Position numbers and translations under genes: made by a program. From NCBI GenBank assembly GCA_000091205.1, contig AP006494.2: DNA of 64,000 nucleotides; one strand, 5' to 3'. The notes under the pieces are model-generated. The model did not search any database. It saw only the letters and a program-made list of their open reading frames with translations, and had not been told where the DNA came from. Positions 1 through 53,199 of the stretch are shown here, piece by piece (position 1 is the first letter of the stretch; every line of letters begins with the position of its first letter). Source of the DNA: Cyanidioschyzon merolae (Eukaryota).

Positions 1-699
1 CAATCTCACATAGGTGCATGCTGTCTGTATCTGTCTTTCATCCTATGTATACATATGATGATGTCCACATGCATGCAGTGCGCCACTGGTACTGCACGGA
101 TCATGGCCAGATCGACTGCGGCGTGTGCGCTTGCGCGGATGCAGGTATTTTTTAGTGGACAAAACGTTTACATAGGCCAGCGTTCTCCGATTATGTGCTT
201 TTTCCTCTCTTTTTGTGGGGGTTCAGTGCACGGTGAAGTATCCATCAAACGCCCTACCTCCAAGTTACACTACCCATACTTCTTCTCGGATTTTCAGGTC
301 GTTTCATACGTTCTGTTTTGTGCCTAGTACCTGCCCTAATCATCCGCCTTTGCGCTTGAACCGCTGGGGCGGATAGTTCATAGAGACAGAACGGCGTTGC
401 CGTACCACACAGAGGACGTCAGCTCGAGGCGCGCGGATGCAGGTGCCTGCGCGATCGCTCGGCAGCGCGGCGCGAATGCCGTCCGGATTGGCGCATTGCT
501 CCGTGTGGGCTGCGGCACGCACGCACGCACGCACGCACGCTTGATTCCTGTATATCAGGCACGCATACAGGGCACGTCCTCGGGTGCAGCGTCTCGACTC
601 GTGTTGATTGTCGAGCAAACGCTGGCTGCAGCTCTTTGGCAGAAACTTCAGTATTTCACTCAGTTCAGAGTGCTTTTGCTTCGCTCTAGACGCTGCAGG

Positions 700-1734
700 A
701 TGCAGGGTGTCCGCGCGGTCGGCCTCAGCAGCGTGCGACGTGTGTACGCAGCGGCGCGTGCACACGTGCAGTCGAGCACACCTGGTGGTGGTGGTGGTGG
801 TGGTGGTGGTGTTGGAAACTTCCTGTCCTCAAGCAATGAAAAGGCGCTCGGAGGTGTGCGCTTTGCAAGTTTAAAAGCCGTGAGGAACCGCATGCGTTCC
901 ATAGCATCGATCGGCAAGATCACAAAAGCCATGAAAATGGTGGCTGCTGCGAAGCTTCGCGGTACACAGGCCCGTCAGGATCTAAGCAGACCTTTCGCGG
1001 CAAGCGTGCGTCAGTTCTTTGACTTGCTACCACTTGAGAAGCTCGGTTCTGAGACAAAGGCCGGTGTGGCGGAGCCGAAACGACGTCTCTTGGTCGTTAT
1101 TACTTCGGATCGCGGCTTGTGTGGTTCAGTCAACACCAACGTCTGCCGTCTGGCGCGCCAAATGCTCCCGCATGGCGCAGCAAGCCCCGTCTCCGATGGT
1201 GTCGAGACCAACATCATGGTGATAGGCGACAAGGGCCGGGACGCGCTCCAACGCACGAGTGCAGCTTTCTTCACGACCACGTTCCGGGACGTTTTCAAAG
1301 CTCCAGTATCTTTCCCACAAGCCGTGATCATTGCCGAGGAAATTCTAGCGCAAAGTCCTGATGAGGTCGTCATTTTCTACAACCGTTTCAAGTCCGCGAT
1401 TAGCCAGGTGCCAACGCAGCAGCCCTTACTGGGCCTGCAACTGCTCATGGACAACGCCAGCGTCTTTGATGGCTACGAGTTCGACTCAGACATGGATTCG
1501 TCGCAGGTAATGGTGGATCTTTTCGAGTTCGAAGTAGCCACACAGCTTTACGGGGCTTTACTTGAGAACGCGACCAGCGAGCAAGCAGCGCGAATGTCGG
1601 CGATGGACAACGCCTCGACGAATGCTGCGGAAATGCTCGACAAATTAACCCTTCAGTACAACCGCGAACGTCAAGCTGTCATTACGACAGAGCTTGTTGA
1701 AATTGTTGCCGGGGCCTCTGCGCTTCAAAAGTAA
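700..1734 (+). CDS. F1 ATP synthase gamma subunit (mitochondrial type). The ORF opens at 397, but the likely start is the Met at 700 (MQGVRAV...).
   Basis: The translation carries the gamma-chain N-terminal signature ASLKAVRNRMRSIASIGKITKAMKMVAAAKL and the C-terminal signature ...MLDKLTLQYNRERQAVITTELVEIVAGASAL. The N-terminus is presequence-like and includes a Gly9 run. Confidence 0.85.
   Translation: MQGVRAVGLSSVRRVYAAARAHVQSSTPGGGGGGGGGVGNFLSSSNEKALGGVRFASLKAVRNRMRSIASIGKITKAMKMVAAAKLRGTQARQDLSRPFAASVRQFFDLLPLEKLGSETKAGVAEPKRRLLVVITSDRGLCGSVNTNVCRLARQMLPHGAASPVSDGVETNIMVIGDKGRDALQRTSAAFFTTTFRDVFKAPVSFPQAVIIAEEILAQSPDEVVIFYNRFKSAISQVPTQQPLLGLQLLMDNASVFDGYEFDSDMDSSQVMVDLFEFEVATQLYGALLENATSEQAARMSAMDNASTNAAEMLDKLTLQYNRERQAVITTELVEIVAGASALQK
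784..812. repeat. (GGT)10 microsatellite coding a poly-Gly tract inside the ATP synthase gamma presequence
   Basis: A perfect run of ggtggtggt... is visible and translates as GGGGGGGGG in the gene frame. Confidence 0.9.
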
Positions 1735-2054
1735 CGGATTACGATGCATGCTAGGCAGATATTTAAAAATGACGTTCACGCGACAGGTCTTTTGCACTCG
1801 GTGGGAGCGTACGAAACCTGTCACCAGTACGAGCGAAAAAGCGACAAAAATCCACAGGATTTCGTGCAGTGCACGGGTTTCTCGCTGCTAGCATGGTGCG
1901 CGATAAGCACACCCCGGCAGCGTCATTCTATTTTGCATGTGACGACTGATCATCGGCCTTTCACCAGTTGTTTCAACGGTGCCTGCAGGGGAGCGTGGCG
2001 TCGTGTATCCGCGCGCAAATTTGGTTCAGTCCATTGGAAATGTACAAACGCAGA

Positions 2055-3338
2055 TCATTGCTGCGCACAGCTCACTCGCTGGGCACCACCGGGGATCCCA
2101 TTCGCGCCATGATCATCGTCGGTTTCGTAAATGTCACGAGGGCCTTCATCCATACCTGCTCGCAGTTGCGATTCATCAAAGTCGATGAGCTCAACGTCTT
2201 CCTTTTCGCTGCCGTCGACGCCATCGAGCTCCGGTTCTGCGCACCGTTGGCCGAGTGCCTCTTCAAGTGCTGGTCGATACTTCAGTTCGATAGTACGCGG
2301 AAATTCAATCTTGAATTTGACTACAAGGACGCCATGCTGGGTTGGTCTCCGATAAATTGGCATACCTTCTCCGGCAATGGTTTTGAGCGGCATCGATCCA
2401 TCAATGACCTCACCGGGACGCGACCGCACCACAAGCGTGCGATCATCGAGCGTCCGTATCGTAAAACAGACACCGCATAGTGCCTCGACCAGCTTGATGG
2501 GTTGTTCCATCAGCAGCGTGGAGCCTTGGCGCTGAAACACCGGGTGAGATTTCTGCTGCAGAACGACAACGATATCACCAGGCTCCACACCGGGTTCCTC
2601 GTCGGCCTCGCCTCTGAGAACAATCTTTTGTCCATGCGACATGCCTTTGTCGATATGAACTTCAATCACGGCGCGGTCTTCAATAACGCGCTCACCCTTG
2701 CAGGTTGGGCACTGGTACTTGCGTGGTACGGAACGTCCAGAGCCACTACATTCAGAGCAAACGGACTGAATTTGCTGCACCATTCCCGGAGCAAGCTGCC
2801 GTATTCTAACCTCCATTCCGGTGCCCCGGCATCCACTGCAGGTAAATGACACGTTGCGCGGGGCATCTGGACTGGCACCCGAGCCTTTGCACGCAGTGCA
2901 CACGCGTTTGCGCTGAATCGCGAGTTTTGTCGTTTTGCCGTTATACAAGTCTTCCAGGCTTACACGCAGCGGATGGACAACGTCTTCAGCCTTGCGTGGT
3001 CCGCGCGAGCGACCTGCGAGACCACCACCGAATAATGCTTCGAATATGTCCATGGGGTCACGGAAGCCGGGCATACCGCCGCCTTCTTTGAGGCCTTCTT
3101 CACCGAGCTCATCGTAAATTCTGCGCTTTTCAGGATCCGAAAGCACCTCATATGCGACTGTTAGCTCTTTAAACTTCTCTTGAGTATCGGCATCAGGATT
3201 CTTGTCCGGGTGCAGTCGCAGGGCCATCCGCTTGTACGCTTTCTTGATTTCCTCTGTGGTAGCGTCACGGCTTACCCCGAGCAGTTCGTAGTAAGCGGTG
3301 TTATTCACTTGCCCCCTACCGGACAAACGACCAAACAT
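2055..3338 (-). CDS. DnaJ/Hsp40 chaperone, type A (J domain, four CxxCxGxG zinc-finger repeats, C-terminal CaaX-like CAQQ)
   Basis: The J domain reads [34 protein letters not shown]. Zinc-finger repeats [24 protein letters not shown] and CPTCKGER are present. The protein ends in CAQQ, a farnesylation box like the CASQ of Ydj1. Confidence 0.85.
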
Positions 3339-3530: not shown

Positions 3531-4722
3531 GAGCGCCCACCGGCGCATTCTGGAATCGTCGACGTTTGATGCGCGATGCGACGATCGCAAAGCATTTCAG
3601 TGGACTATGGATCATCTTCGAAAGCGGGATACACACTGACTTACGGAAAAGCGTCCATCATGCTGCTGCACCCTATCTCCGATATCCGTTACCTGTTCCC
3701 GGGTGTACTGGTTATTCTCGCAGGTTCCACTGTGCGCCTAAGCTGTCTTGAGCACCCGCAATAGCGCCTGTGCCGTTGAAGCAAATGCATCACGGGGACA
3801 GAACGGCTTTGACCTACAACTGAGGGCGTCGGCTCAAGGCGTGGTTTGCGCGATACGGGTCCGGAGTACATAATCATGCTGGGGGCCAGCAACCTGCGCA
3901 GACTGACCTGCTGCCCGCGGCAGCGCGAAGCGATAGACTAGGAGTCCACTAGAATCAGAGCGACGCTAAGACGCAGCCTAACTGCCCCTAATCCCGGAAT
4001 AAACTGCGTTCCGGACGAGTTGTTCAGATCTCGGCACGGCACCCGCGAATGGGTGGAACATGAAGCAAGCGCCTGGCGGACTCGTCCGGCCCGCGGGACC
4101 TTCCGCCTAGGAGGCAAACTTTCGACAATATGGAAACCTTTTCCCCTGTTTTAAAGTTTACCGTAGAGGGGGAAAGAAATATGTATATACATGCTGGTGC
4201 ATCGAGAGTCTCTGTTCCTTATTCTTAATAGGGCGCTCGATACGCGCACCTGGGAGATCTGGCTGTAACGAGACACGACGCGCATCTCGCCTTTGAAGCG
4301 AAACGCGATGCTCATAGTTAGCGTGCTAGTCTATCGTACAAGATGTATTTGCGTTACAGTCGTAGCCAAGTATAGTGTCTCATCTCAGTTTTGTTTCAGC
4401 CTTCAAGTGGCTATGTTCAAGTGATCATTACGAGTTTATAACATACGCGTTCAAAGTGGGTTCTTCATCAAAACTAAAGATAGAAAGTTCTGGAAAAGGA
4501 AGTAGAGGATCCTGGAGGGTGGCTGTAGCCGGCCGCCGAAAAACAAAACGAAAAACAGTGCCGAGCAAAGAGCAACAGGTGATGACGAAGAAGCAGGAGG
4601 GTGAGCCAGACATCAGAAGCTGCCCGAGAGACGACAGTACGACGAGATGGATATGAAAGCGTTTCCTCTACGCCTAATCAAGGATTCCTACGAGCAAAAG
4701 TAGCAAGAGGCTATCAGAAACC

Positions 4723-6700
4723 GTGCCGAGTCGTACTCCAGCAATGTTTGTAACGCATCTTTTCGGACTAATGCATTTGGTTAATGGGATGGAAGAGGAC
4801 GTGACGGATATCATAGCAGTCGATATTCCGGGTGAAATTTTCAACAAGACCTTTATTCGTCACATGATGCTTGGCACCGGGGAAACGTCGAGGAGAAATG
4901 AACGAGTACACGCCTTACACGAAAATCACGCCGAATACCGCTTCAACGGTACTAGATACAGGGGCGACGCAGATATTTACCGCCACGGGACAATGAAGTA
5001 CCTCACGAATTTGAAGAACCAATTCACCATGAACATGAAAGGCTTCATGATACGCTCCATCTTTGCGCTGTACCCGGGCCTGTCTCGCAGAGGGACACAG
5101 GCCATCATCGACGGCATCGCGAACGATAGTAAGAATGAACAGAAGATCGAATTCGTCGACGATAAGACATCACACAGGAGAAAGAACGAGGCTTCTGTAA
5201 TCCGTGCGGCAATTAAAGAGCACCGTGCAGTCTTGGGCCTTGTCAACCCAGCAGAGAAGCTAAGAAATATGAAAAAAGATGATGAAAGATGTTATCCCCT
5301 AATCCTGCGCTATTTCGTGTTTCTGGAGCGAGAACTCGAACGCATGCTGGAGATGACGCTGAATGAGGAAGAAAATGAAGAGTCGCAGAAATGGAAGGCT
5401 GTCCTAATGGAGAACCGCTTCAATGTCGTTCCGTTATGCAACATCAAGTCACAATTTGTGGCTATAGACTCCAGCGTCCTTCATGGCATGATCAGGGAGA
5501 TCTGTCCGGAGTTCGATGTTAGCAGGAAGGAGAACTCCGGTGAAAACCGGGAGACGTACTGGAAGAATATCCTCGATTTCAAACGTCTCAAAACGAGTAA
5601 GCAAAAGGTATTCACTGGGTTGATCGAAACCGATGGGGTAACCATTTGTGGACACTATCGGATGTTGATGGCAGATCGTCCTGGTCCGTCTTCGATATCG
5701 CCCGTGACGAAGCATGAAATAAAGAAGAAGGTGGATCCTTCGACGCAGCAGATGCAGGAGAACGACTTTCGTTGTCGGCCTTGACCCCGGGAACACGAAT
5801 ATCGTTACAATCGCAGGACCCACGCGAGAGGAAGATGGTATCAAAGGCAAGTTGCGTCAGAAAGACATACGGCTTTGGAAGTTCTCAAGAGCTGGGTACT
5901 GCCGAGAGTTTGGGTTAATGAATCCAAGGATATAGAATGAGAAGCGGAACGCAGGAGTGAAGAAGCACCTAGAAGCGATCGGTAGCATAGCGAGCCGCGA
6001 AGCAAACTGTCAAGCTTTTCGGGATTTGATAGAAACTCAAGCTGCTCATCAGGAGAAGCAGTGGAAAGAGTATACAAAGCCCCGGTGGGTTCGTCAGCGT
6101 ATGAACTTGTACGGAGGGAGACAGCGTACATTCACCAACTCCTTCAATGATTGTACGCCCTCAAGAAGGACACGAGTCAAAGGCTCGTAGTGGCTAGCGG
6201 AGCAGGGCGCTGGGCGTCCAGAAAATGGAAGCATACCGGCTCCATCGACAAGAGCGTACAAGGAGTGCGCAGAGCGTTTTGTCACTGAATTGGTGGATGA
6301 GTTCCGAACGGCCTACGTGCATCATGAACGGGGGTTTACACTCCTGCCAGTCGAGATGGATGGTGCCAACCGAACGCTGAGGATACAGAAAAGTACGGAG
6401 AGCGGACAGAGCACAAAATGACACAGTGAGCGCGAGTTCGAGGACTCCTTGCACTGGTGAGTACAAGCGGTGGCATGGAACGCATGCAGTTTGTGGACCT
6501 GGACTTCAACGCTGGTATTGATATCAGGGGATATGAGGTGCTGGCGCGGAGACCCGAGGAGCTGACACGAGCGAACTTTGTGGGCAGCTTCTCAGGGTCG
6601 AAGCGCACAAGGAGAAACTGAAGCTTACAGCAATCGGCCGGTCGAAAAAGGCTGGGAGGCGTCTGCAGGTCGGTGTATATAAATACACGCGACAGACGTA
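4723..6700 (+). mobile_element. Degenerate Fanzor/TnpB-like (IS605 OrfB / OMEGA-family RuvC nuclease) element, copy A. The coding region is broken by at least one 1-bp frameshift and several in-frame stops, and a conserved terminal region extends about 80 bp past the stop.
   Basis: Frame 1 (4723..5784) gives a 353-aa N-terminal ORF. After a 1-bp frameshift near 5765-5770 the translation continues as [19 protein letters not shown], a RuvC-I-like motif of the GIDPGxxNxxT type. Stops fall at 5934, 6188 and 6419. A frame-1 segment near 6484 reads MQFVDLDFNAGIDIRGY, matching the RuvC-III consensus DxDxNAAxNI. The ORF stops at 6616. The sequence ...gaaactgaagc..aaaaggctgggaggcgtctg... runs on to about 6690 and is conserved in two other copies. 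The region is AT-richer than the flanking gene islands. Confidence 0.45.
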
Positions 6701-8693
6701 CGGTACGAAAACACGTCGATTAATGCCTGTACGCCCGGTGTACGCATTGAGGGGGCTCTTCGTTCGTTTGACGGAACGTTCGCATTGAAAGGAATTCCCG
6801 CTTGTGCGCTTGCTATCGGCGCTCGGAGAGTTCAGCCGGGAATGCGTGCTGCAGAAGCGCGCGCAAAAAGTTCATAATGCATATAGGAACAAAACTGCCC
6901 ACAATGTGTGTTGATAAGAGGTAAACATAATAACATGGGTCATGCTGGTGAGTTCGAGACGCTTTCTCTGGGACACGGGATAGGTGATTCGCAGCGTTGC
7001 AGAGTATGGTTGTCTTGTAAGTAACAGAGTTCTTCAGTGGCTGTTGGAGCGCTGCATCCACTGCAGACTGCAATCTCACCCGATCGCCTGCTTGGGAAAG
7101 GCCGACTTGTTTCCATGTTGTTCAAATTTTCCAAAAGACTTGTGAAACGTTGTCATGTCGATTCGTCATAAAACCGGTAAAAATCAAACAGTAAGTTGGA
7201 GGTACAGGTCGCGAACCCAACGAGCTGGCACGACGTTGCAACGATGTGTAAGCACGCGTTGAGCGGTTACCTCTTGCCTCTACGGTTTTTTGGCAATGAT
7301 TTCCGGTGCAATGGTCAACGAGTGCTCGTTCCATGTAAACATTGCTTATCCTGCCTGGTGGATAGCAACATCATGAAGCCAGCATATTCTAGGTGCAGGC
7401 GCGGGTACCTGCCGAAAAATGACGCTAGAGTCAGATGAGTGTCCCTAGGTGTCAATGCAGCAGGCCGCTAAAGCATTTCGTTTCGCTTGGTCTTCGAGAA
7501 AGAGACGCAGGGCATGTCCATCTGCATGACCAGCGGTTGCAATTGCATGCACCGGAGGTTGCATCCACAGGTCAATACTCAAATCCAGGAGCAGCAGCTT
7601 CCGAATGGTGGATGAAAAACGCCAAAGTCAATGCCAGAGACGCGCTGAAAACCGTGTTGATGGACGGGATGTGTACACGTGATCTCAGATCTCGATCAGG
7701 TTCCACGAAATGCTCCGTTCCTGTTTTTGTGTCGATTTCGCCCCAAAACCTGCATCCGAACCATGTATACAGTGCACAGAATGAGGGCAATCATGTTTAG
7801 CTGCTGCGCGTAACGTCCAAACCGCTGCCCAAGATGCCTGTGAAAACTGCTTCACGCTAGTTTTTCGTTCCCTGGCGCCGCAGTTAACGAGCCAGACGGT
7901 AGAATACTCGAGTTCCACGAGTGGTTGAACCAATGCGCCTGCCCTGGCGTTTGCGATCGACCAGTATCCCTCGGGAATGCGCTTCAGGCGGCTTAAGTTC
8001 GCTCCTTTTCACTTGCACATCCTCGCATTTCGTTGCGATCGGTTGCGTCGAGTTGTGAGCACATTTGCCGAATATAATCCGTACTGCGTCTGCAGCTTGT
8101 GCATTTGCTACCTGCTCGTCCAATGTCACCACAGTAGCCAGGTTCCGTGCGGTCGCGTCGGAGAATCTCCAGCTCGCTGGACGGACAGAAAGCCCGGCGC
8201 CGCTCTCTCTCGTAGTTTGTTCCTCATCTCGCCATCTTTTCAATACGTTTCAGCGGCAAATGTACGGCATAGATGAGGCATCACACGACAACAGTCTCAA
8301 AGTTTGAATCAACGGTACGCTTTAAAGATGTAGAGCACGATGTGTTCAAGATTTATCAGCTTTCGTCGACCGCATTTGTTTCAATTCATGTATCACATTG
8401 CGGAAAACAAGTCGTTTTCGTTTTTAAAAGAATTCAGAGCGGCAAGCAGCCTCGAAAGTGCCAGGGTCTGGCGCCGCCTTCTCCGCTGCTGAGTAAGCAA
8501 GAGCGTTTGCACCTGTCATCACGCTCCAGAACGAACACTTACGTGTCAGGCGTGCCTTTCGGTCTCGCGACGGCATCTTGACCTTTCTCGCGTACTTTGA
8601 TCATCAAGCGCTTCGGAGGCGGTCAGCGCGCTTTCATAGGGCACGGCCGTACGCAGGTTCATGAGTCGGGCGACGTGGAGACCAACCCGCATC

Positions 8694-10037
8694 TCATTTA
8701 AACAGTTTGCGTCTAAGGAGGGTGCGGTCGAACCTCGTGGTGCGCTTCACCGGTATATACCGCCACAGCACTGCCATCGAGCTGCCCATAAGCGCCATCC
8801 ACACCACGCTCACCGCTGAGGGCACCCGAACAGCAAATTCTTTGAAATGGAGTTTCGCGAGCAGAAACCCAAAGGCAGAGCTCTTCATCGCAGTTTCGAT
8901 AGCAATTGTTCGACAAACGACTTCATTGTACCCGAGAAAACGGGGGATAAAGTAACCAAGGCCACCGCCGAGTAAGTGCAGTAGAAATACAGGGATCTGG
9001 AGCGAGAGGCCCGCTGCGAGAATAGGTTGAGCCACCTGTGCAACTGCACTGCCTACCAGAAGACACGTTGAAATCACGCCTATCAAGGGAGAGAAAGGTA
9101 AAATCCGCTGTACAATGCGATTCGCATAGCGATTCAATAGCATGCCCGTAGCGATCGGAGCAAGCACCACCTGCAGCGTAGAGAGGGCGATCCCCAGGGC
9201 ATCCACGGAAACGACGGCACCGATGAGGACCTTGCAAAGGAACGGTGTCATGAAGATGGCACCTATCGTGGAGCACGTTGTCATCATCACGCTAAGCGCG
9301 ACATTTCCATTAGCAATATAGGTGCAGAGATTGCTCGCTTGGCCACCATTGATGGAACCGACGAGCACAAGGCCGGCGATTAGCTCCGGGGAGAGCCCCA
9401 TCAAGTGCCCTAGCAGCAGCGCCAGTAAAGGCATAAGGGCGTAGCATCCAAGGAAGCCGACGCCGATCGCACCAGGGCGTCGGAGGACTCGAGCAAAGTC
9501 ACGCGGCGTCAACGTAATGCCCATGGAAAGCATGAGTATGGCGAGGCCTAGCGTAAAATACGAAGTAGACACCCAGAGGAAAGTCTCTGGGCGCCGCAGA
9601 GCAATGACAGCTGAAATGAGCGTCCAGAGAGGAAAAAGATTTGTCGCCAGCGTCGAGTACCGAACAAAGCGCTCCCATAGCGACGCGCGCACCGGACTGG
9701 AGCTTTCCAGTGTTGTTGAGGGCGCGAGTGCGCTACCACCGGCAGCCGATCCGAGCGGTGACCCCGCCGCACCAGACCCTGATAGAGAGGATTTCGCCTG
9801 GAGCTTTTGCATGTCGTCTCGATCACTGCTACCAAACTGACATCCACGCAGTCGCAGAGGAGCCGGCAGCGCTGCGACTGGTTGCTGCCGCGGGACGCCC
9901 TGCCGCAGCGACTTGCCCACTGGGTTGGTGCGGCCTGACCATCGAGTCGCGGGTGACCAAATCCTAGAGTAGCCAGCACAAGTTGTTAAGAAACTTAACT
10001 CACCTAAATGTAAGCTGTAGCGTGGCATCGCTACCAA
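8694..10037 (-). CDS. Bile acid:sodium symporter (BASS/SBF) family transporter, plastid-type, with a long transit-peptide-like N-terminus
   Basis: The translation contains GSINGGQASNLCTYIANGNVALSVMMTTCSTIGAIFMTPFL and LAPIATGMLLNRYANRIVQRILPFSPLIGVISTCLLVGSAV, typical of SBF-family membrane cores. It has multiple hydrophobic spans and about 120 aa of S/R/A-rich N-terminal extension. Confidence 0.8.
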   Translation of the reverse strand: MVAMPRYSLHLGELSFLTTCAGYSRIWSPATRWSGRTNPVGKSLRQGVPRQQPVAALPAPLRLRGCQFGSSDRDDMQKLQAKSSLSGSGAAGSPLGSAAGGSALAPSTTLESSSPVRASLWERFVRYSTLATNLFPLWTLISAVIALRRPETFLWVSTSYFTLGLAILMLSMGITLTPRDFARVLRRPGAIGVGFLGCYALMPLLALLLGHLMGLSPELIAGLVLVGSINGGQASNLCTYIANGNVALSVMMTTCSTIGAIFMTPFLCKVLIGAVVSVDALGIALSTLQVVLAPIATGMLLNRYANRIVQRILPFSPLIGVISTCLLVGSAVAQVAQPILAAGLSLQIPVFLLHLLGGGLGYFIPRFLGYNEVVCRTIAIETAMKSSAFGFLLAKLHFKEFAVRVPSAVSVVWMALMGSSMAVLWRYIPVKRTTRFDRTLLRRKLFK

Positions 10038-10685
10038 ACCGAACCAACGTCAAGGTAGTGTACCTTTCGTACCTGCGTCAGGCGTTCCGGGCACTTGAAG
10101 CGATGCCGCCGGCGCAGGCGCAGCACCGCTTGTGTCCATTTTTGTATCCAAACACCGTTGTTCGGTACGGCAGTTGCGTACTCGCTGAAGCTACGTATGG
10201 AGTCAGGTGCACCGAACCAGACTCCCTAGTACAAGGGATTTCTATAGAAGATCAGGAAAGAGACCCCGGAACTTGTAGAGATCAGCTCAGATTCAAATGG
10301 CCTCGGAGGAAAGTTGTCGTCGACGACAGAGGTCAGAGCGCTGTGGCGACAGAGGCACTGCGGGCGCTTGACCTACAGTGGGCGCCTCCTGCGGCGCAAC
10401 CAGCGTTGGCGCTGCTGTTGCCCTCCAGATAAAGACCGGTTTTGGATTGCCATTGCGGGCGTTGGCTTGGCGCAAAGTTTATCCGACGCGGACCGAAGTC
10501 TCGTCGTCGGTTTGGGCTCTAAAATGGATGCGCAGGCGAGCCTGCTGCCGGGAGCGGTGCTGGATGGCACGCTGAAGGAGCTCGGCAGCCAAAGCGAAGC
10601 CTCGACGTAGGCCGCGCTAGCCTGCATCGTTCCAAAAGAACGGTGCCGTGGTCGACCTGCACCTGCCTCGCCTCAGCATCTACCG

Positions 10686-13367
10686 TCACTGAGACGGTGC
10701 GTCTGGCGCGAATGCCTCCATTAGGGCGCGGACGCGTTCAGCATCGACACCGACCGCACGGCGTTCCTCCACGGAGTAGTGGCGATGGAGGACAGCAACA
10801 AATTCGCTTAGCACTTCTTGTACGTTTTCCCGCAAGATCTCGGTCAGGACTCGACTTCCATGTGGTCCAAAGAGACGTTGCCAAAAATCCAGGATTTGCC
10901 GTAAAGCAACAGGTTGCGTTTCGAGGTTCGGATCGATGGGGACGCGGTCAAAACGCAGCAGAACGGTAGCCCAGATCTCTCGAACGCAATCGACCGTTGC
11001 AGTAGTGCCAGCTTCCCCCTTCAGAGCGGCAACATTGCTGGATGCCGCCACCTCAGCGAGAAAAACAAGTAGAGGCTGTAAAAGTTCTCGAAGTGCACGA
11101 AATACCACAGCTTCGTATGCAGCTCGGAGCTCGTCTCTTAAAGTTTCCTTCGAGTTGAGGTCCATACGTTTTGGAATGAGGTCTCGCACAGAGCCGAACA
11201 GATGACGAAGACTCACCTGACCTCGAATGATACGGGAAACCCCTGCGCGGAATTCGTCAAACGATAAATATCGGAGTTGTCGCTCTTGATCCACGATATC
11301 GAGTTGCTCAAAGAGCATAAGATTTTGGTGCAAAATCAGCAGCTGCTTGAGATAGAAAAGCTCCGCACTGTCACTGGTGGCGGCATGCGGATCCAGACGA
11401 GGCGAACTCAGCGGGCTGCGTTGGACACTGCCCTGTGTTTGACCAGGCGCCGAGGCTTTTCGCAAACTCGCTAGCGCTAACACGGAACTCTTGTCGGGTT
11501 CAAGGCTCTCTCTAGAAGCCGGCGGCTCTAGCAATGCAAGCCTCCTAGCTGCCGTTTGCAGATTTCGAATACAAGCTTCGATGGCCTCTCGGGCGAGACC
11601 CGCGAACACCAGGGCGTCAATGCGACCATGGAGAAGTGCCAAAACCTGAAGCGTAAGCAGTGTTGCTCGATAGACCGCCGACGACGGTGTACTAGTCACT
11701 GGCTGCGTGTTAGGGCCCTCCAGTGACAACTGCTGTGGCCCATGTCCCCGATTAGGACGTTGGAAATGAGCGTAGAGAGCCTGCAGGTCTCCGTCTGATG
11801 GCTGAAAACGGAGAATTTGATCACGAATGAATAACTGCGCTCGATAGATTGTGCGCTCACGGGTGTCCGCCAATAACGAAGTAACCGGCTCTGTAAAGCA
11901 TGACGCAACCAGATCTGAAGTCGAACGCGAAAGCTCAGTTTCCATCGCTTCTTTCTGCAGAAAATCAATGCATCGAACGAGCGCGTCAAGATCACTTTCC
12001 TGCAGCACTCGCGGCAGAATGTAGATCGAGATAAGGTCAGCGATTGATCGCAGCCACTGACGGAGCGCAGATAAGGGTTGCGCTTTTGCCCCAAGAGATA
12101 CACGAAGCAGCATATCCTGGGTAGTCTCGGATGAGGGCAGCATCAGAGCCTGAAAGAGCTGGAGCTCCATGGTACAAACTTTAAGCAGCATCGTCGTTGT
12201 CGAACGTGCTGCGAGATCCAGCTCTTCAGCGCTTGCAGCAAGTCGTGCCTGCTCTTGGGCCAGCGGAAGCACGAGTCGTCGTCGTTGCTCCACAAAAAGC
12301 ATCTCGCATTTTGCGAAGAACTGCATGGTCTCAGGAGAATCGGCGGGTGCCAGGTTACAGATGGCATCCATGAACTGGCGAGTCTGCTTGCTTAGCTGCC
12401 GGAAGCGAAGGTTGACGATTGCATCTTCGCGATCAGGAGCTTGTAGCCGTCGCTGGTCGGCAGGTAATCGGGAAAGCTCCATAGCAAGGCCTGACGTTAG
12501 GTGTCTCACCAGGACTCCAAGATGCGAACAAGTGAGCTCTCGCGCTCGCTGCAGGATTTTTTCGAGCCGGTCATGTTCCGTGGCGCTCCAAACGCTGTTG
12601 CTGCTGTTGCTGCTCCCGTGTGCTGCAGCCAGTTCCGCTGAGTGTGCGAGAGCACCGCTGTGCTGCATACGCTCCTGGCACATACCCAACGCAACGAGCA
12701 CGTCGTGAATATCGTTACCTACACCGTCCGCATCCAACGAAGAGGTTCGAAGCGAGGCCATCTCGACCGTATCCAGCTTCTGACTTAAGCGCTCCAATTC
12801 TTCCCATAACTCCAAGCGCTCACGCATGCTTTGTGCTTTTCGTTCCAGCACCGTCTTCTTTGTGTACGCGTCCTTGAGTGTAGCTCGAAACATCGAGAGA
12901 TCTTTTTGTGCTTGCGTGCAGCGAGTCTCCATTTCCTCAAGAGTGGTTAGGAAACTTTGTACTTGCTCGAGGGCGTTCCGCACTCTCTCCAGATCCACTT
13001 CTATGTCGTGCTGAATGCGTTCGAGAGCGCTGCGTCGTACGTCCTCTAGCTGTAGATCAATCACGTCGAGTTCGGTGCCGAGAGCCGATTCTTGTTCAGG
13101 CGTAAAGTCTCCGGATGTATCCGCTCGGAAAACGCTTGATTCCTGATCATCTTCTGCGACTGTTTCGAAGAAATCGGCCCTGCTGAAGAGCTCACGCGCC
13201 CTCAGGAACAGTTGCTCTTGAGTCTCGCGTAGTGCGGGGTCCCCGTCGTAGACGGCATCAAGAGACTCCCACCGCGCGAAGGTATCCTCTGCAACTTTCA
13301 TACAAGCAGCAAGCGGTGGAAAAGTTTCTCCTAACCTTGAAACGCGAAGGAACTGAAATATTGGCAA
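10686..13367 (-). CDS. Large coiled-coil protein, possibly a COG3/Sec34-like Golgi tethering complex subunit (identity uncertain)
   Basis: This is an 893-aa uninterrupted ORF. Its N-terminal coiled-coil segment ...CTQAQKDLSMFRATLKDAYTKKTVLERKAQSMRERLELWEELERLSQKLD... resembles the Sec34 domain pattern (CE.LL.EQ..L.....L.YFEELE.I..RLN). The rest is helical-repeat-like. Confidence 0.4.
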   Translation of the reverse strand: MPIFQFLRVSRLGETFPPLAACMKVAEDTFARWESLDAVYDGDPALRETQEQLFLRARELFSRADFFETVAEDDQESSVFRADTSGDFTPEQESALGTELDVIDLQLEDVRRSALERIQHDIEVDLERVRNALEQVQSFLTTLEEMETRCTQAQKDLSMFRATLKDAYTKKTVLERKAQSMRERLELWEELERLSQKLDTVEMASLRTSSLDADGVGNDIHDVLVALGMCQERMQHSGALAHSAELAAAHGSSNSSNSVWSATEHDRLEKILQRARELTCSHLGVLVRHLTSGLAMELSRLPADQRRLQAPDREDAIVNLRFRQLSKQTRQFMDAICNLAPADSPETMQFFAKCEMLFVEQRRRLVLPLAQEQARLAASAEELDLAARSTTTMLLKVCTMELQLFQALMLPSSETTQDMLLRVSLGAKAQPLSALRQWLRSIADLISIYILPRVLQESDLDALVRCIDFLQKEAMETELSRSTSDLVASCFTEPVTSLLADTRERTIYRAQLFIRDQILRFQPSDGDLQALYAHFQRPNRGHGPQQLSLEGPNTQPVTSTPSSAVYRATLLTLQVLALLHGRIDALVFAGLAREAIEACIRNLQTAARRLALLEPPASRESLEPDKSSVLALASLRKASAPGQTQGSVQRSPLSSPRLDPHAATSDSAELFYLKQLLILHQNLMLFEQLDIVDQERQLRYLSFDEFRAGVSRIIRGQVSLRHLFGSVRDLIPKRMDLNSKETLRDELRAAYEAVVFRALRELLQPLLVFLAEVAASSNVAALKGEAGTTATVDCVREIWATVLLRFDRVPIDPNLETQPVALRQILDFWQRLFGPHGSRVLTEILRENVQEVLSEFVAVLHRHYSVEERRAVGVDAERVRALMEAFAPDAPSQ

Positions 13368-16010: not shown

Positions 16011-16349
16011 TGAGCTCCGCAGCGCTTGCGCGTGAGATTCTCACGCGTAGCGACTTCCAGGCGGTGCGCGCTGAGAAAGACCCGCTGATCGGCACCGGCA
16101 ATGCAGACACAGAAGGCAGCGTTCTCGCTGCGAGACTCGTTCGAACAGCTTCAACGTGTTGGACCAGGTTTTCCTTATGAACAGCTTTTGTCCAGGTTCT
16201 GGTGCAAACCATGGATAGCTATGATACGTAATCTGCGGGCCGTGACATATGGGAATCATCGAAAGTACGGTTCGTAGTAAACGATAGCAAGAATCAGCCG
16301 GTGTGATATGCGAGGGACACCCTCGGCACAAAATTACGGCCTTCGACCA

Positions 16350-16885
16350 CAAAATTGTTCCACCTTCAGGTGAGTTTCATCAAGTGCGTTTTCGCGGTGT
16401 ATAGCAGACGCGTTCGAGGTGGGTTCACTCTAAGAAATAAAAAATCCATAGGAGAGATATGGGCGAAGAAGTCGGGGATCTGCTAGGGTCGGCATCGCCG
16501 GCTGCAGGAAAACACGAAGAAATCCTCTTTTCGCTGACCATGGGGCGAAAAAGAACAGCAACAAGAGCGACGATACTCGAGGGAAGGTGTTTGCCCAACG
16601 AGATGATGACGAGATTGTAGTGGCATATATGGCACGAGTATTAGGAATTTTTGCACCTGTGAATTCAGTCAGCGTCAATGCACGCATGGAGTTTGTGACC
16701 CGACACTTCAACGATGCTATTGGTATCAGACGATGTATGGTGCTAAAGACGAGACCCTAGGACCTGCCACGATCCATCTTTGTGGGGCAGCCTCTCAGGC
16801 TCGTAGTGTGTGAGCAGAAACTGAAACGGATTGCAGGCGGTCTGTCATAAAAAGGCTGGGTGGCGTCTGTGAGTGGGTATGTTTA
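16350..16885 (+). repeat. 5'-truncated paralogous fragment (copy B) of the Fanzor/TnpB-like element family. It retains a decayed RuvC-III region and the conserved terminal about 80 bp.
   Basis: The segment 16681-16760 translates MEFVTRHFNDAIGIRRCMVLKTRP*, which matches copy A's MQFVDLDFNAGIDIRGYEVLARRP. The downstream sequence ...gaaactgaaacggattgcaggcggtctgtcataaaaaggctgggtggcgtctgtgag... aligns with 6600-6690. Upstream about 350 bp align with copy C. Confidence 0.5.
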
Positions 16886-16992
16886 TTCACTTTGTGTTCG
16901 TGGAAATGTTTCCGTTTCACTGACTGTCTTGGACCAGACATCATCCTGGGTGCTCGCATTGCGCTTCGAAAGGCCATATGACGTGATGGGGT

Positions 16993-18183
16993 CACGGCAC
17001 CGCGGAGCACTGGCACGTCCACTTGACGACCGCCACTTCGGACGGTGCGCCCTGACTCGGCCTCCACAGAGAGGCACCCCGGTGCTGCCGCATCGCCCTG
17101 CATCCACAACGGCGGCATGCAGATCGCCCCAGCCAGCGTCGCTGTGTGTGGATCGTCGCGCATGCTCGGATCGCGCGATCCGCTCGCCTTCAATGCGACA
17201 GGTGCTCCAACGCTTTGCCACGTGTCCGTTGCTGAATGCGTGCAGTCGCGATCGCCGTCACGCACGCACGCATGCACACACGCGGGCGTATGGCGGTATT
17301 GAGGCGTTTGCATTGGCGGGCGCTCTTTCTGGCACTGCAGCCGGGTCCAGCGACAGGCACGTGGCTCAGGGAGCAAGTAGTAACGCCTCACCAGCATCGA
17401 GCTTGCGACGTGCAGGAGTGTACGCGGTGCATCGATGGAGACACGCCTACGGACACGTGTGCGACATTGGACTCTGGCAGTGAGCTGGCCTAGTCAGAAT
17501 GCACTGACGGAGAGATGCAAATGCACACCTATAAAGCATGGATTTCGGCGAGCAACCAGGAGCATTTACAGTACACCACCCGAAAGATCCATGCAAGCAA
17601 ACATTTCGCAGATACTCTGGGCGGCAACCAGGAAAACTGGACGTACACACATCCAGATCATACACACAGACCTGCGTCCCGCCCAAGGCCCTAGCTCGAG
17701 ACCCCCGCCGAGTCGCCACCGCTGAGCCAGCGCGTGTGCCACCGCCGCCCCGGATCGTCCAGACGCTCGTAGCCGTGCGAGCCGAAGCAATCCCGCTGGG
17801 CCTGAACCAGCTGGCTTGAGCGCAGCACCGCCTGTCGATACGTGTCGTAGTACGAAAGGCTCGCGGTCAGCGCCGGCGCCGGCACACCCAGCGATGCCGC
17901 CAGCCCGACAACACGCCTCCAGCTCTCGTGGCGACGTCCAATCTCCGCAGCCAGGTCAGCGTCCAGCAGCAGATTCGGCAGGCTGGGGTCTCGTCGAAAA
18001 GCGCCCTCGATCCGCTCAAGCAGCTGTGCCCGAATAATGCAGCCGCCCTTCCAGATGCGCGCAAGCTCCCCGAGATCCAGCGACCAGCCCTGCTCGCAGC
18101 TCGCTCGATGCAGCAGACTGAGACCCTGCGCGTAGCTACAGAGCTTGCTGCAGAAGAGTGCGTCCTCAATAGCAGCGATCAAC
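16993..18183. repeat. Segmental duplication copy A, at least 1.2 kb and about 98% identical to 62810..64000. It covers the 3' part of the 6PGDH gene plus about 700 bp downstream. The true extent is unknown because copy B runs off the window.
   Basis: Base-by-base comparison of 16993-18183 against 62810-64000 shows only scattered mismatches. Matching ORFs have near-identical translations (16860..17483 vs 62758..63324; 17435..17725 vs 63252..63542). The duplicated block contains a (CACG/CATG)n-like microsatellite. Confidence 0.85.
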
Positions 18184-20248: not shown

Positions 20249-20369
20249 ACTTGCGTTCAAACCATAGCTGGAAACACCGCGTCCCATCTCGAATCGCGAA
20301 GTTAAGCAGCATTGGGCTCTCTGAGTACTGTGATGAGGGATCGCACGGGAAACGGGAGTGACGCTAGTT
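20249..20369 (+). rRNA. 5S ribosomal RNA gene (solitary copy)
   Basis: The sequence ACCATAGCTGGAAACACCGCGTCCCATCTCGAATCGCGAAGTTAAGCAGCATTGGGCTCTCTGAGTACTGTGATGAGGGATCGCACGGGAAACGGGAGTGACGCTAGT aligns along its whole length with eukaryotic 5S consensus blocks (CACCG..TCCCATC..GAA..CGAAGTTAAGC..TTGGGC..AGTACT..GATGGG..GGGAA). It is about 121 nt long. Helix I pairs ACTTGCGT with ACGCTAGT with one T/T mismatch. Confidence 0.8.
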
Positions 20370-23799: not shown

Positions 23800-24600
23800 T
23801 TTTTGAAGTCACTGCGAGATTGCGAAGAAAGACCTGACTCGTACGCGTGGACAATGCTATTTTTTAGCAGGGGGATGGACGAACTTTGTCTTTGTGTTTA
23901 TGCGGAACATCATGCGCCCAAAACAGTACGGATCAAACTATGTCGACGACAAGACGATCCTCTAGTCAATCCATCCCACTCCATGCGTTCCCTTGGAAAC
24001 ACTTCGAAAGAATCCATAGCTTCCGAAGTTTCCCTATCATTGATATGTGCTTTGATGACGAGACACCGGTGGACAAAGAAAATGCACACTTGTTTAGGAG
24101 ACCTTTGCGCGTTAAACAACACACATCGATTTCGCGCTGAAATGCGAGCACTTAGATCAAGAGGGAAGGGTGTTCGTCGCACTCGATGAGATTTCACTCG
24201 TGGAAAACTGTAGACCAGTATATGGGTACGCTAAGCGAGGCGAACGGCTGTTCGTAAAGAAGAGACAGGCGAGCAGAACAACAACATCCCGCCTAGCGGC
24301 GATTCAGTCATATGATCGCCTGCGAATCGCTGAACAGATAGGATCCTTCAGCAGCGCATACTTCGTGGACGCACGATGTGGCTCCTCCGTTCCGCATTCC
24401 TCTGCCTTGCTTGTAAACCACGTCGCATTCGATTGCTCAAATACAGCTGTGGAGTACGAAGCTGAAAGGAATATTGAGATGCTCTCCGTGTCGGCCAGTT
24501 TTCCCTGCCCAGCTCTCTTTGAGCGTATCGTCTCTGTTGCCAAAAGTCATTCGACGCGTATTGATAAATAGCAGAGTCCTTCGCGCTTCTGACACGGAAT
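23800..24600 (+). mobile_element. Decayed Tc1/mariner-IS630-like DDE transposase remnant
   Basis: The ORF 24170..24571 gives MFVALDEISLVENCRPVYGYAKRGERLFVKKRQASRTTTSRLAAIQSYD, which matches the start of the DDE domain (vvflDEsgf....ygwa.kGer...tviaAls.dG). The later stretch ...FPCPALFERI resembles the PYSPDLNPIE region. The copy is truncated and compressed and sits in an AT-rich spacer. Confidence 0.35.
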
Positions 24601-25507
24601 TTCTTCGATAAGTCGGTCTCTACGTTCATCAGCCCTGAATCCATCCGCTCCTCCTCAGCTCGTGCACGGATGAGAGCGGAAAGATGAGATTCAGGCCATG
24701 GGGGTCGCGCAATGGAGACGGTAACGAAAAGGTACTCAATGAGTAGTAGACAGACATACTGAAAAGGAATCTCGGTCAAATCATCAGTATGATGCGTCAG
24801 AATCCTGAGGGAAAATGGAATGGCGTATAGCGGCCATCTTCATGCAATCCTAGACCGTACACGAGAAGGAGAAGAGACCGCCGGACGTAGAAAAGAAAGA
24901 TCCTTCCAAAGGAAACGTGCATGTACAGTAAGTAGAACGAGTCGGAGCAGAAATACCAGTCTGGAAACTTGTCAAAGCGCTCCTAGTAAAACACGTCAAC
25001 GGGGCCAAGGTCTCAGAAACGCAACATGCAGGGCGTCATTGGGGATTGCGTCGATCCGTACTCGAGAAAGCCTCGCCTAGCTTACCTCGCCTTTAAACAG
25101 CTCGTTAAGAAACTGTTCGCACGAGTTCTGGACACAGGGCTGCCAGCTGTCCATATTACTATAAGATTTTTCAATCGAACCTTTCGCGCGACAACATAAC
25201 TGTGTCCCCGGGCATAAGATGCAGTAAGACGAGAGTGTATACTCAGTGAAGAGCACGAACGCTTTCCAATAGATTTTGACACGTCGCCGCACGACGTCGA
25301 CGACGGGAACATCGAGACAGCGCCGGCGCCAGGGAGTATCAAACGAACCGCCAAAACGAAAACCGTATGCGGGTCGCTGTCGAGCGCCTCATGATGCGCA
25401 ACCTGTGAATGAAGTACCCATACCTCACTGAACCAGAAAGATGGTGACTGATCCAACGCATTCTTCGGGCGTCTATGGAGGCAAATGACGAATAGGGCTT
25501 CGCGGGA

Positions 25508-25792
25508 GTGCATGCGTTGTTACCGAGTTCAGAAGCAACAGTTCCACGAAAACGAGGCTCTCTTCATATGGTCCAAGCTCAGGATGTTACCCTCGGCCTC
25601 GGAGCAATGCACGTCGTATTCAACGGATGGACGATACACGATGTCTTCTTTGCATGTATACTTCGCTACATGGTTTTCATGAACGCAGCCCTGCAGTGCA
25701 AAGCAGACTTCCTCATGGAACCCGAATGCCCCGCCCGTCTCGAGCTGCTTTTCGACATGGTCCCTGTACGTGGCATCAGGACCATTAGATAA
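25508..25792 (+). repeat. Member 1 of an unclassified protein-coding dispersed repeat family, homologous to 37118..37456 on the minus strand
   Basis: The translation MHVVFNGWTIHDVFFACILRYMVFMNAALQCKADFLMEPECPARLELLFDMVPV aligns with MDVTSNAWTERDEFLAFSLRYVVSLTRTLQCKAEFLLGSEHALCFQKLLLDVTPV at roughly 50% identity and the same start position. Both copies lie in AT-rich, ORF-poor spacers. Confidence 0.4.
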
Positions 25793-27403
25793 CCGTGGGC
25801 GCTTCTGTTCGGTACCAAATGGCGTCCTCAGTGAGCCGTGGCTGGTGCCTGTGAGCAAATACGAGCACTCAGCCGGTGTCAAGAAGAGCACACAGGGTGC
25901 TCGTTCAATTTTTCTGGTTTACAGGAAGGGAACACAGAGAGGTTTACAGGTTCTATGGAGACCGATGGAATATCGATCTGCATGCAATTTTGTAGAACTA
26001 TGCCCGAATCGAGCAACGAGATGCATTCTTATCCGTTTACAGTAGTTGAAAAGAGAGGCATGTAACGGGCGGAAATCTCGAATAGAAGAAATCCATGGCC
26101 GTCGTCAAAGCTTTGAATCACAAGGCTAGTGCCTGCTGCCTAAGCATAAAGCTGATGAAGCTGCTCAACTTTCCCCGAGCTGGATAGCAACAAGAACCAG
26201 GCATGATGGACTTCAGAAGGGATATCAGCGAATGAAATGTCTGGGCCAGGACGCAGCTCGACTTTCGGAGCACCGCATCAGTCGGGGAGAGATACTTTGT
26301 ACGCTTCGTTCAGAGAGAAAATGAGCGCCTGACTGGCACACAGAAACGATCTTTGATGGGCGTGCATGAGACTGCGCTGAGGTTGCAAACGGTCTCGGAT
26401 GTACAAATGCAATAAGCGTGCATTCGACAACTTGTTTGGTCAGTTGGAGACGGAAATGACCGATAAGCTGCGTCGTTTGATGGTAGCCTATGGCGCTAGA
26501 CGTGCTGTAGCGTGCGGTCGCTGTATTCCGGCGACCCCGCGACGGAAGCATACAGCGAGTGCAGGAATCGATGCTGTAGGATTCCCATCAATGCGTTGAC
26601 GGCGACATTCATGCACCACGAGCACAGGTGCACGTCGGAAAATGCCAGAGAAAAGGAAACTGCAATACAGAGCGACGCGCTAGATGGTTTCCAGAAAGCT
26701 AAGCAAAAGTCATATGGCAAGGAATAGGAAAGCGAATGGCTTGCTATGTTGTAAATCAACCTGTAACCATGCGCGCAAGAACTTTTTGCAACCAGACTCG
26801 CATGCCCTGATCAGCAACCGGTAATGTATCGTGCTTCCCAAGCGTCCAGCGGCTTTGAGTCAAGCGATTTCTCGAGAAAATGGTTTCGTACTCAGCGTAC
26901 GCATTGTGCTGAAACACTGAAGGTATCTAACCAAAAAAACCAGTTGCCAGGAGAGGAACGGAGAAAGACTTGCCTCGGGTAGTGCAGTGGTAGCGCACGG
27001 CCGGGCGATCCACCAATGCTAGAGCACCTTCTATACACAACAGCAACGATTTCTCTGGGCAATTCCTGAGCAATAATGGTGTTCCATCATTCAATACCAC
27101 TGAACGTCAACTCCTGCCACAGGCAGACCTTACTTCGAGCCATCGTGCGCCAGGTTCTATGTCGGACGAGTGCCACCTGCCCGTTTTCCAAACATTAGAT
27201 GTCACACAGAGCTGGTGCCTTGAAACCTTTTGCCAATATCCTAGGACCAAGACTTACAGGCATACGCTCGCGTCTTCCGCCAGCGACGACTGAAGGACGC
27301 GTTGCTGCATTGTGCTGCGGCAACTCGGGTTACTCCGTGAAACCAACGGTTACTCATCGAATCCCTGTCAAGTAGGTTCCACAAAAGCGATCAGCTGACG
27401 AGC

Positions 27404-46946: not shown

Positions 46947-47482
46947 TTGTGCTGCAGAAAGGAGGGCATGCATACAAGTTTATGCTTTGCGCTGAGTCGA
47001 TGCAAGGTTGCTGGTTAGGCGCGTCGTGCCAGCATCCAGATACATTTGTTATCGAGAGCAGATGCTCTGGCGCAAGCCATGCACTGAAACGAAATCGTTG
47101 CCAAACCGTGATCTCCCGTGTGCGTCACCTGTTGTGGTGACACCGTCGGAAATGAGTGCAATCGCGTGAAACTCGTTTCTCTTTCAAGAACGGAATCGCG
47201 TGCCGTTTACGCAGCGCCCACGCGCCTCGCATGCAGCAGTTTCGTCGTCTCCAAAGCGATGGTGAGTCATGCATCACGCTTCACGCGGAATGCAACACAG
47301 CCTGAGCATAACTTGTACCCCGCTGTGGTGTGTCGTGCGCGAAACTGCCTTCACTCACTGACGTCGCGACGAGCAGTCCGTGGTGTGCGTACACGGATCA
47401 TGAGCAAGCCCCAGCTCAGAGTAAAATGGAACAGGTCCACTGAGCTAACTCGTGTATAGACGCTCAAGTTTGTGTCTATTTT

Positions 47483-52911: not shown

Positions 52912-53199
52912 CAGACCACAGATCGGAAACCAAACTCCTGAAGTACCGCTTCAGTCTGTCAGCGGCGAGTCTGAACGAACTGTTCTCAACAGAAGGTTTT
53001 CCATGACCAACGGTTGGCTGCGCGATGAGGCCACTGGCGTCTACCACAGCAGCGAGTCTCATTTGTCGCAATTGCGCCGTTGTGTTGCGAATGAAGTGCC
53101 GGACGATCTAGGGCGACGGCGGCGTTTCGGCAGCGTCGATACGCCCGTGGATGCCCAGCGCGCGCTCCAATGAGCTTTCGGATCTGCATGCGCTGTTTC

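Follow-up and report, generated by a model that had tools for sequence, protein, structure and literature searches.

Two repeats of the red alga Cyanidioschyzon merolae as probable short deletion derivatives of a Fanzor1 transposon family

What are the two diverged segments of about 540 bp, copies B and C, that recur within a 64,000-nucleotide stretch of the Cyanidioschyzon merolae genome (contig AP006494.2; hereafter the window) and resemble the 3′-terminal part of copy A, a longer, decayed element of the Fanzor1 family CMe-1 in the same stretch? The initial annotation, made from the letters alone, took them for 5′-truncated fragments reduced to the element's 3′ ~540 bp. Here, our comparisons lead us to consider it very likely that B and C represent old insertions, now inactive, of a non-autonomous derivative (~600 bp) of the Fanzor1 DNA transposon family CMe-1, similar to miniature inverted-repeat transposable elements (MITEs). 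For a model red alga whose genome is very small and poor in repeats, this reading would correct how two repeats are annotated. The window derives from strain 10D, given that the DnaJ and carbamoyl-phosphate synthase it encodes are identical to BAM80663.1 and BAM80678.1.

The parent family, CMe-1A, has been described as a ~3-kb Fanzor1 element present in ~150 copies in the C. merolae genome, the copies being ~80% identical to their consensus, devoid of terminal inverted repeats (TIRs) and with the target-site duplication (TSD) given as undetermined (Bao & Jurka 2013, Mob DNA 4:12, PMC3627910). According to the same study, which classed CMe-1 as Fanzor1, the complete element comprises a TE-N2-like 5′ module and a 734-aa Fanzor1 open reading frame (ORF); the 5′ 635 bp of its consensus constitute a separate repeat, TE-N2_CMe, which was given as a related short element, and an internally deleted form of CMe-1A was not described (PMC3627910). 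We compared the 3169-bp CMe-1A consensus (Additional file 2 of PMC3627910) with the window, where its matches to A, B and C had E-values ranging from 1e-24 to 0.

Architecture of the short copies and identity of the parent gene

When the window was compared with itself, B (16357-16867) and C (53220-53731) gave an alignment of 518 bp at 68.3% identity (E = 8e-40), and the 3′ end of A matched both of them, at 72% for B (A 6430-6665, B 16632-16869) and at 69% for C (A 6419-6663, C 53488-53731). These alignments bear out much of the initial annotation, which had described B and C as non-autonomous derivatives of A's element family with common boundaries, a retained right end with its decayed RuvC-III region and several conserved blocks, all of which are present in the sequence. 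However, a more permissive self-comparison placed the left half of B (16355-16522) on A 4391-4553 (E = 1e-14), ~2 kb upstream of the end of A, and the left half of C (53202-53473) on A 4375-4634. Both halves also align with the consensus, which B matches at 810-1070 (66%) and 2855-3083 (67%), and C at 790-969 (72%) and 2822-3081 (67%). On these alignments, B and C are two-piece composites in which a left part of the parent is joined to its right end, and the view that only the 3′ ~540 bp had been kept gives way: the left ~270 bp correspond to consensus 790/810-1070, and the right ~250 bp alone represent the 3′ end (2822/2855-3083). The complete copies also extend beyond the limits first assigned to them (Table 1).

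The left piece (~290 bp, consensus ~770-1070) consists of 5′ non-coding sequence followed by ~55 codons from the start of Fanzor1, while the right piece (~320 bp, consensus ~2833-3085 plus a tail of ~60-75 bp) covers the final ~65 codons with their stop and the non-coding sequence at the 3′ end. Both copies share one junction, GTAGTG/GCACAG (B 16622/16623, C 53489/53490), at which ~1.76 kb (consensus 1071 to ~2833) is gone; the fusion is in frame, and the microhomology at the junction amounts to 3 nt at most. Lacking consensus 1-~770 as well as 1071-~2833, B and C are derivatives rather than full CMe-1A members. An origin of the deletion by retroposition or splicing was considered and rejected, since direct reading of the sequence revealed neither GT...AG at the junction nor a poly-A tail, which argues for a genomic deletion rather than a spliced retrocopy. 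The motif GTC-N2-3-AAAAG-N3-GGGNGGCGTC at the right end occurs exactly three times in the 64-kb window, once each in A, B and C, with 0 expected; the right ends lie 56-70 nt past GGCGTC, and the left boundary lies ~40 nt upstream of GTTCCAC.

These results bear directly on the alternative that B and C are independent 5′ truncations, for example abortive copies, each keeping a contiguous 3′ ~540 bp. Both copies lack the consensus 5′ ~770 bp and start alike (790 and 810), and a precedent exists in the Chlamydomonas Fanzor1 families CRe-1, 2 and 3, where 5′ truncation and internal deletion are frequent (PMC3627910). However, the left ~270 bp (consensus 790-1070) are not contiguous with 2822-3083, and the identical junction and left end recur at at least nine loci. 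Moreover, the same left end also terminates the 1.4-kb, DDE_3-containing relatives described below and is therefore a real terminus rather than a random truncation point. We thus regard independent truncation as very improbable, and in its place read a ~1.76-kb internal deletion with one common junction, the left-end module being kept from consensus ~770.

The identity of the parent gene was examined in A and its relatives. Conceptual translation of A yielded RuvC-I, RuvC-II (VDEFRT) and a decayed RuvC-III (VDLDFNAGIDI) over several frames, and related metagenome proteins include apparently intact forms of 698 and 731 aa. A profile of the family aligned with green-alga Fanzor1 (Bao & Jurka, Additional file 3) from RuvC-I to RuvC-II with an hhalign probability of 96.9% (E = 1.6e-10), and the family alignment shows no variation at D431, E603 and D672. 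Together, the profile match, the invariant D/E/D and the published classification support the assignment of the parent to Fanzor1. Between TSY and NRD, CMe-1 has two Cys and two His, with no canonical CxxC...CxxC. Pfam returned sub-threshold matches only for the intact relatives (a faint Cas12f1-like_TNB, E = 0.51) and nothing for the reconstructed copy-A protein or for the 103-aa ORF of C; phmmer and profile searches with the CMe-1 family gave no matches in the PDB, and the AlphaFold2 model of P0054 (12-sequence alignment) was, at a mean pLDDT of 39, too poor for use. As a separate observation, full-length CMe-1 copies occur with 2-4 tandem ~78-bp (26-aa) units before RuvC-I (consensus 2117-2196), as in the arrays of L091 (7663-7892), L092 (9722-9892) and L118 (137-291) and in proteins P0002 and P0022, in which the Fanzor linker is lengthened.

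In the short copies themselves, the C-terminal remnant of B was found by tblastn with CMe-1 residues 647-721 (E = 6e-16), and its RuvC-III reads TRHFNDAIGI against the family consensus NRDFNAAINI. Judged by these residues, the fragments are not catalytic, RD having become RH in B and the motif being frameshifted in C. The in-frame fusion nevertheless favors the idea that the short element encodes a protein of ~125 aa, in which a basic N-terminus resembling a nuclear localization signal is fused to the RuvC-III segment; L104, L119 and L122 present single-frame stretches of ~125 codons with one stop each, and the 103-aa ORF of C (53322-53633) crosses the junction. That ORF then departs from the ancestral frame, which B leaves as well, all 11 copies examined carry at least one stop or frameshift and have no coding capacity, and neither Pfam nor the PDB gave a match; an in-frame fusion, for its part, has a prior of one in three. 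Such a protein is, in our judgment, extremely improbable.

Recurrence of the deletion and the ancestral element

Additional copies were taken from hot-spring metagenome contigs, which were scanned with the right-end motif (at least 120 loci, about half of them from Cyanidioschyzon-like genomes). Alongside numerous full-length elements, two-block short copies were present, among the matches listed, at L009 (identical with L023 and L094), L076, L104, L119, L122 and L109, and L047 and L051 displayed the two-block architecture in the multiple alignment. The junction and both ends recur at at least seven further loci with unrelated flanks (at least nine loci in all), and the left boundary, junction and right boundary coincide in all copies compared. 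The suspicion that the shared segment might belong to a larger unrelated repeat was accordingly not borne out, as the copies elsewhere are consistent at both ends; in one variant, 1.4 kb long, the interior differs. The same ends and junction at many loci with unrelated flanks place B and C within a multi-copy, MITE-like family of deletion derivatives, and a single founder deletion followed by amplification would be the simplest reading of its origin. Locus L107 holds the ortholog of B (99.3% identical), and copy C is kept in all five strain contigs that cover the region (L126-L129 and L131), at ~99.6% identity to the window.

The short copies are 65-72% identical in pairwise comparisons. In a neighbor-joining tree of the last 240 bp, the deletion derivatives form one clade with full-length A as its sister. 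Over the same 240 bp, identity is 71.7% for A-B, 70.1% for A-C and 67.7% for B-C, and the earlier statement that B and C are closer to each other than to A does not hold; what unites them is the deletion junction. Along the element, identity is flat (0.51-0.66 across segments versus 0.20-0.24 in the flanks, the search motif being the exception), which suggests neutral decay.

In the course of events that we propose, the ~1.76 kb missing from the Fanzor1 gene (consensus 1071 to ~2833) would have been lost in a single ancestral internal deletion. Four pieces remained, namely the left-end module, ~55 N-terminal codons, ~65 C-terminal codons that include RuvC-III, and a non-coding 3′ end of ~115 nt with a hairpin at its close. 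The shortened element would then have been copied to many loci, presumably mobilized in trans by an autonomous relative, and the copies would have decayed neutrally after insertion. The short family shares with MITEs and with the internally deleted or 5′-truncated Chlamydomonas CRe-1, 2 and 3 copies that it is short, non-coding and multi-copy, has the ends of its parent and one junction, and is presumed to be mobilized in trans. B and C differ from these in that they have no detectable TIR or TSD, are very old, and contain Fanzor coding sequence rather than transposase sequence in their interior. Compared with CMe-1A, of which A is a member, B and C consist only of CMe-1A sequence, fall into the published age class (~80% to consensus) and resemble the published family in that no TIR or TSD was detected. 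Missing from them are the TE-N2-like 5′ 635 bp with the ~135 bp that follow, and the 1.76 kb of the Fanzor1 gene; their 3′ tail (TATATATTTAC...GTCGTGGAAC...GTTTCACTGA), common to A and to the full-length copies L037 and L046, among others, is unlike that of the published consensus. The 'unclassified' CMe-1A Fanzor1 family would thus now be seen to have deletion derivatives that spread as short elements. The sequence they retain, a ~290-bp left and a ~320-bp right module, may serve as a starting point for mapping cis-requirements and the guide RNA.

How such elements moved is suggested by a second set of relatives. Elements of a 1.4-kb type, found among the matches listed at L026, L066, L108 (two copies), L029, L054 (two copies), L025 and L121 and absent from the window, combine the Fanzor deletion junction and right end of B and C with ~930 bp of additional 5′ sequence. 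They open with the short family's left-end sequence (...TCTTTCAAC..TTTTGTTCCACC...AATGC.TTTT.GCGGTGTATAGCAG), the same as the left-end module of B, and carry a decayed DDE_3 transposase remnant between this left end and the Fanzor ATG. Their 5′ part matches Pfam DDE_3 weakly (E = 6e-4, below the cut-off), and the DDE_3 transposase of the distant relatives described next matches the 5′ 930 bp by tblastx. L133 (420-3810) and L134, from metagenomes of other organisms, present an apparently intact DDE_3 directly upstream of an intact Fanzor1 (P0052, P0054); the DDE_3 of L133 has a Pfam E-value of 7e-20, that of L134 is PF13358 by precomputed annotation, and L133 is bounded by 32-nt TIRs with 81% complementarity. 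DDE_3 transposase sequence is absent from A, B and C, and the 5′ region of TE-N2 and CMe-1A gave no match to the DDE_3 transposase. The left end common to the short and 1.4-kb types, together with the DDE_3 match, points to an ancestral layout of left end, DDE_3, Fanzor1 and right end. The lineage most likely descends from an element of this kind, from which the CMe-1A, 1.4-kb and short types most likely lost the transposase, the Fanzor middle, or both.

Capture of Fanzor1 by Tc1/mariner-type transposons is known, e.g. from PUl-1 to PUl-4 of Pythium (Bao & Jurka 2013, PMC3627910). L133, L134, the 1.4-kb type and two further elements of the window, E and F, conform to this type in that a DDE_3 immediately precedes Fanzor in the same orientation and TIRs enclose the pair, whereas A, B and C carry no transposase sequence. 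E (24125-26890, +) and F (38742-36437, -) are decayed and more divergent. Their Fanzor1 pseudogenes (25050-26890, +, and 38048-36437, -) have DDE_3 transposase remnants directly upstream, and tblastx matches to the transposase lie at 24125-24550 (+, E = 8e-19) and 38742-38470 (-, E = 4e-10). The two elements are inverted around ~9.5 kb and partly ~70% identical (25502-25714 versus 37561-37349). A tie between the CMe-1 lineage and DDE_3 (Tc1/mariner-type) transposons would bear on how Fanzor genes travel in eukaryotes.

Several observations weigh against the reading of B and C as deletion derivatives of a DDE-type transposon family. In the short copies, no direct repeat beyond chance was found between the flanks as a sign of a TSD, and a TIR test, in which one end was aligned with the reverse complement of the other, yielded z ≤ 2 for each of nine short copies, the power of both tests being limited by the age of the copies. 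With no significant TIR and no TSD detected in B and C, a cut-and-paste DDE mechanism is attributed to them by way of their relatives. Full-length CMe-1A and CMe-1B copies run 120-770 bp 5′ of the left terminus common to the short and 1.4-kb types. Furthermore, the Fanzor deletion is found both with and without the transposase remnant, and two deletions in differing combinations call for recombination between copies or for a second deletion. The extra copies come mostly from metagenome contigs rather than from a scan of the 10D genome, and fishing with the right-end motif biases its apparent conservation; the GGGAGGCGTC block is intact in three of the six copies found without that motif. Finally, the tree described above carries no bootstrap or other support values.

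The right end: transposition mode and a possible guide RNA

The element stops just past a 10-bp hairpin at its 3′ end, TCGTGRAACG-loop-CGTTTCA(C)TGA, in which 76% of cells pair, compared with 28-50% for slid partners, and double-change cells number 14 as against 7.3 ± 2.2 in shuffles (1 of 500). G:U pairs are frequent, which assigns the terminal hairpin to the sense strand. It is the only structural feature supported, and moderately so, as the model was drawn from the same sequences. Apart from this hairpin, RNAalifold on 17 right ends gave -4.8 kcal/mol with almost no covariation, no element region was better folded than the GC-rich flanks in sliding-window folding, and single-sequence folds of the right-end tail had z-scores mostly between -1.7 and +1.9. 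Rfam gave no match for the element: only an unrelated 5S rRNA was found at gathering thresholds, and permissive settings added sub-threshold snoRNA noise in B.

A terminal hairpin of this kind, with constant 3′ ends, variable 5′ content and neither TIR nor TSD, would also suit a rolling-circle (HUH) element of the Helitron2 or IS200/IS605 kind, with hairpins at both ends in place of a DDE mechanism. A short left-end hairpin, CACC-N4-GGTG, is possible, and the Chlamydomonas Fanzor1 elements are Helitron2 (PMC3627910). Against this stands that a RepHel or Y1 gene was seen in no locus among the matches listed, that the relatives have DDE_3 where a Tc1/mariner-type element would have it, with 32-nt TIRs in L133, and that the left-end hairpin measures just 3-4 bp and is inconsistent between copies. 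Of the features of Helitron2 (hairpins at both ends, asymmetric TIRs and an autonomous partner encoding RepHel), the 3′ hairpin is supported in the short copies, and the DDE_3 association points elsewhere. A rolling-circle origin appears quite unlikely to us. A consistent TA was not seen at the left-end boundary of the short copies.

Does the right end still specify a guide RNA? In characterized Fanzors, the guide RNA (fRNA/omegaRNA) lies at the last ORF codons and the 3′ non-coding region (PMC10530073), with which the retained right part of B and C coincides. The two copies could therefore be guide-only elements that function now or did so recently, their right ends being transcribed into omegaRNA/fRNA with the 3′ flank as guide and Fanzor1 supplied in trans to protect or home them. 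In support of this notion, the GGGAGGCGTC block is non-coding in A, B and C and lies within the ORF in the consensus type, and is kept in both; the terminal hairpin has G:U pairs on the sense strand and compensatory changes; and in the 3′ untranslated region (UTR) of the distant relative L134, GGGAGGCCGTC precedes TATATAT, a sequence similar to the CMe right-end block that is not significant alone. The 3′ UTRs of L133 and L134 align significantly with the CMe right end in the coding part only. Opposed to this are the weak consensus fold, local folding energies no better than those of the genomic flanks, the lack of an Rfam family match, the flat conservation and the ~30% divergence of the copies. 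In addition, the sequence 5′ of the left end showed no conserved motif that could be a candidate target-adjacent motif, and no intact Fanzor1 gene was found in the window. We hold present or recent guide function to be unlikely, and B and C have the appearance of dead relics that give no indication of functioning today. The founder of the family could nonetheless have carried a guide-RNA gene, the right end being the guide-RNA region elsewhere.

Bacterial non-autonomous IS200/IS605 derivatives (PATE-like elements) keep the transposon ends together with the omegaRNA region. They offer a conceptual parallel, that is, a deletion derivative of the TnpB family with a guide-RNA-encoding right end. 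In our case the host is eukaryotic, the gene is Fanzor1 rather than TnpB, the mechanism is likely DDE rather than Y1, and the elements are known from DNA sequence. That the short family was a guide-only Fanzor1 satellite, a MITE with a guide-RNA gene as its chief cargo and a promoter-bearing left end, is a speculation we consider unlikely to be correct. Were it so, the RNA of each insertion would target its own empty site, and the Fanzor1 of full-length copies would restore or retain the short element through break-induced repair. The family would then be a eukaryotic counterpart of the omegaRNA-bearing non-autonomous IS200/IS605 derivatives, and the retention of the same 3′ module in two differently built derivative families would be explained.

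Other family members and surroundings in the window

The features of the copies are collected in Table 1. Copy A, with orthologs in metagenome loci L001-L004, follows the order TE-N2-like 5′ module, left-end module (~4375-4490), multiply frameshifted Fanzor1 pseudogene and right end. A segment at 231-429 of the window resembles the TE-N2_CMe-like 5′ module of CMe-1A (consensus 60-256, 78%). Copy D is cut exactly at the end of a 631-bp segmental duplicate (59455-60085 = 47482-48112, 98.6%).

Table 1. Coordinates of CMe-1 family copies and their parts (window positions unless a locus is named)
Feature	Coordinates	Strand	Remarks
Copy B, complete ~600-bp CMe-1 Fanzor1 internal-deletion derivative (probable)	16333-16938	+	ends ~±10 bp
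B left-end non-coding module	16333-16458	+	consensus ~770-905; conserved block gtgtatagcagacgcgttcga (16399-16419)
B Fanzor1 N-terminus remnant	16459-16622	+	ATG and ~55 codons, frameshifted, including ccggctgcaggaaaacacg; ends at the junction
B Fanzor1 C-terminus remnant	16623-16824	+	decayed RuvC-III; ancestral stop tga 16822-16824
B 3′ non-coding right end	16825-16938	+	GGGTGGCGTC (16858-16867); terminal hairpin ttcgtggaaatgtttccgtttcactga (16897-16923)
Copy C, complete short derivative (probable)	53195-53803	+	ends ~±10 bp
C Fanzor1 N-terminus remnant	53322-53489	+	ends at the junction
C Fanzor1 C-terminus remnant	53490-53689	+	RuvC-III KRDHNPAINT after 1-nt frameshift; stop tga 53687-53689
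C 3′ non-coding right end	53690-53803	+	GGGAGGCGTC (53722-53731); terminal hairpin gatcgtgaaacgtgattcgttttaatgatc (53762-53791)
Copy A, near full-length decayed CMe-1A	3582-6735	+	3582-6674 = consensus 1-3092, 79.6%
Copy D, left-part-only fragment of the same family	60086-60340	-	consensus 841-1028
1.4-kb copies, L026	5619-7047
1.4-kb copies, L108	3012-4421, 8620-9835
1.4-kb copies, L054	2732-4004, ~9600-11005
1.4-kb copies, L029	9692-10986

A syntenic region of Cyanidiococcus yangmingshanensis (L132, JANCYV010000007.1 470111-491394) contains the genes for 6-phosphogluconate dehydrogenase, an NAD-binding protein, COG3, SBF, DnaJ and ATP synthase gamma. No CMe-1 sequence was detectable in this region, A and B being absent, and with genes at 72-78% it is too diverged for boundaries to be drawn. 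The spacer between SBF and DnaJ measures 1.6 kb there versus 5.3 kb in C. merolae, where copy A sits.

Downstream of B, a 1191-bp segmental duplication (16993-18183 and 62810-64000, 99%) carries the 3′ part of 6-phosphogluconate dehydrogenase, its second copy reaching the end of the window. It begins 55-70 bp past the right end of B, closer than the 110 bp first given. C had likewise been placed next to a tandem repeat, which in fact lies ~500 bp away, and the start codon of carbamoyl-phosphate synthase follows ~280 bp downstream of C. The repeat is a tandem duplication of 137 bp × 2.0 (54305-54578), of which the near-identical strain contigs L126 and L129 have one unit only, so that its copy number is polymorphic. 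A 5S ribosomal RNA gene is located at 20249-20369 (+; Rfam RF00001, 91 bits).

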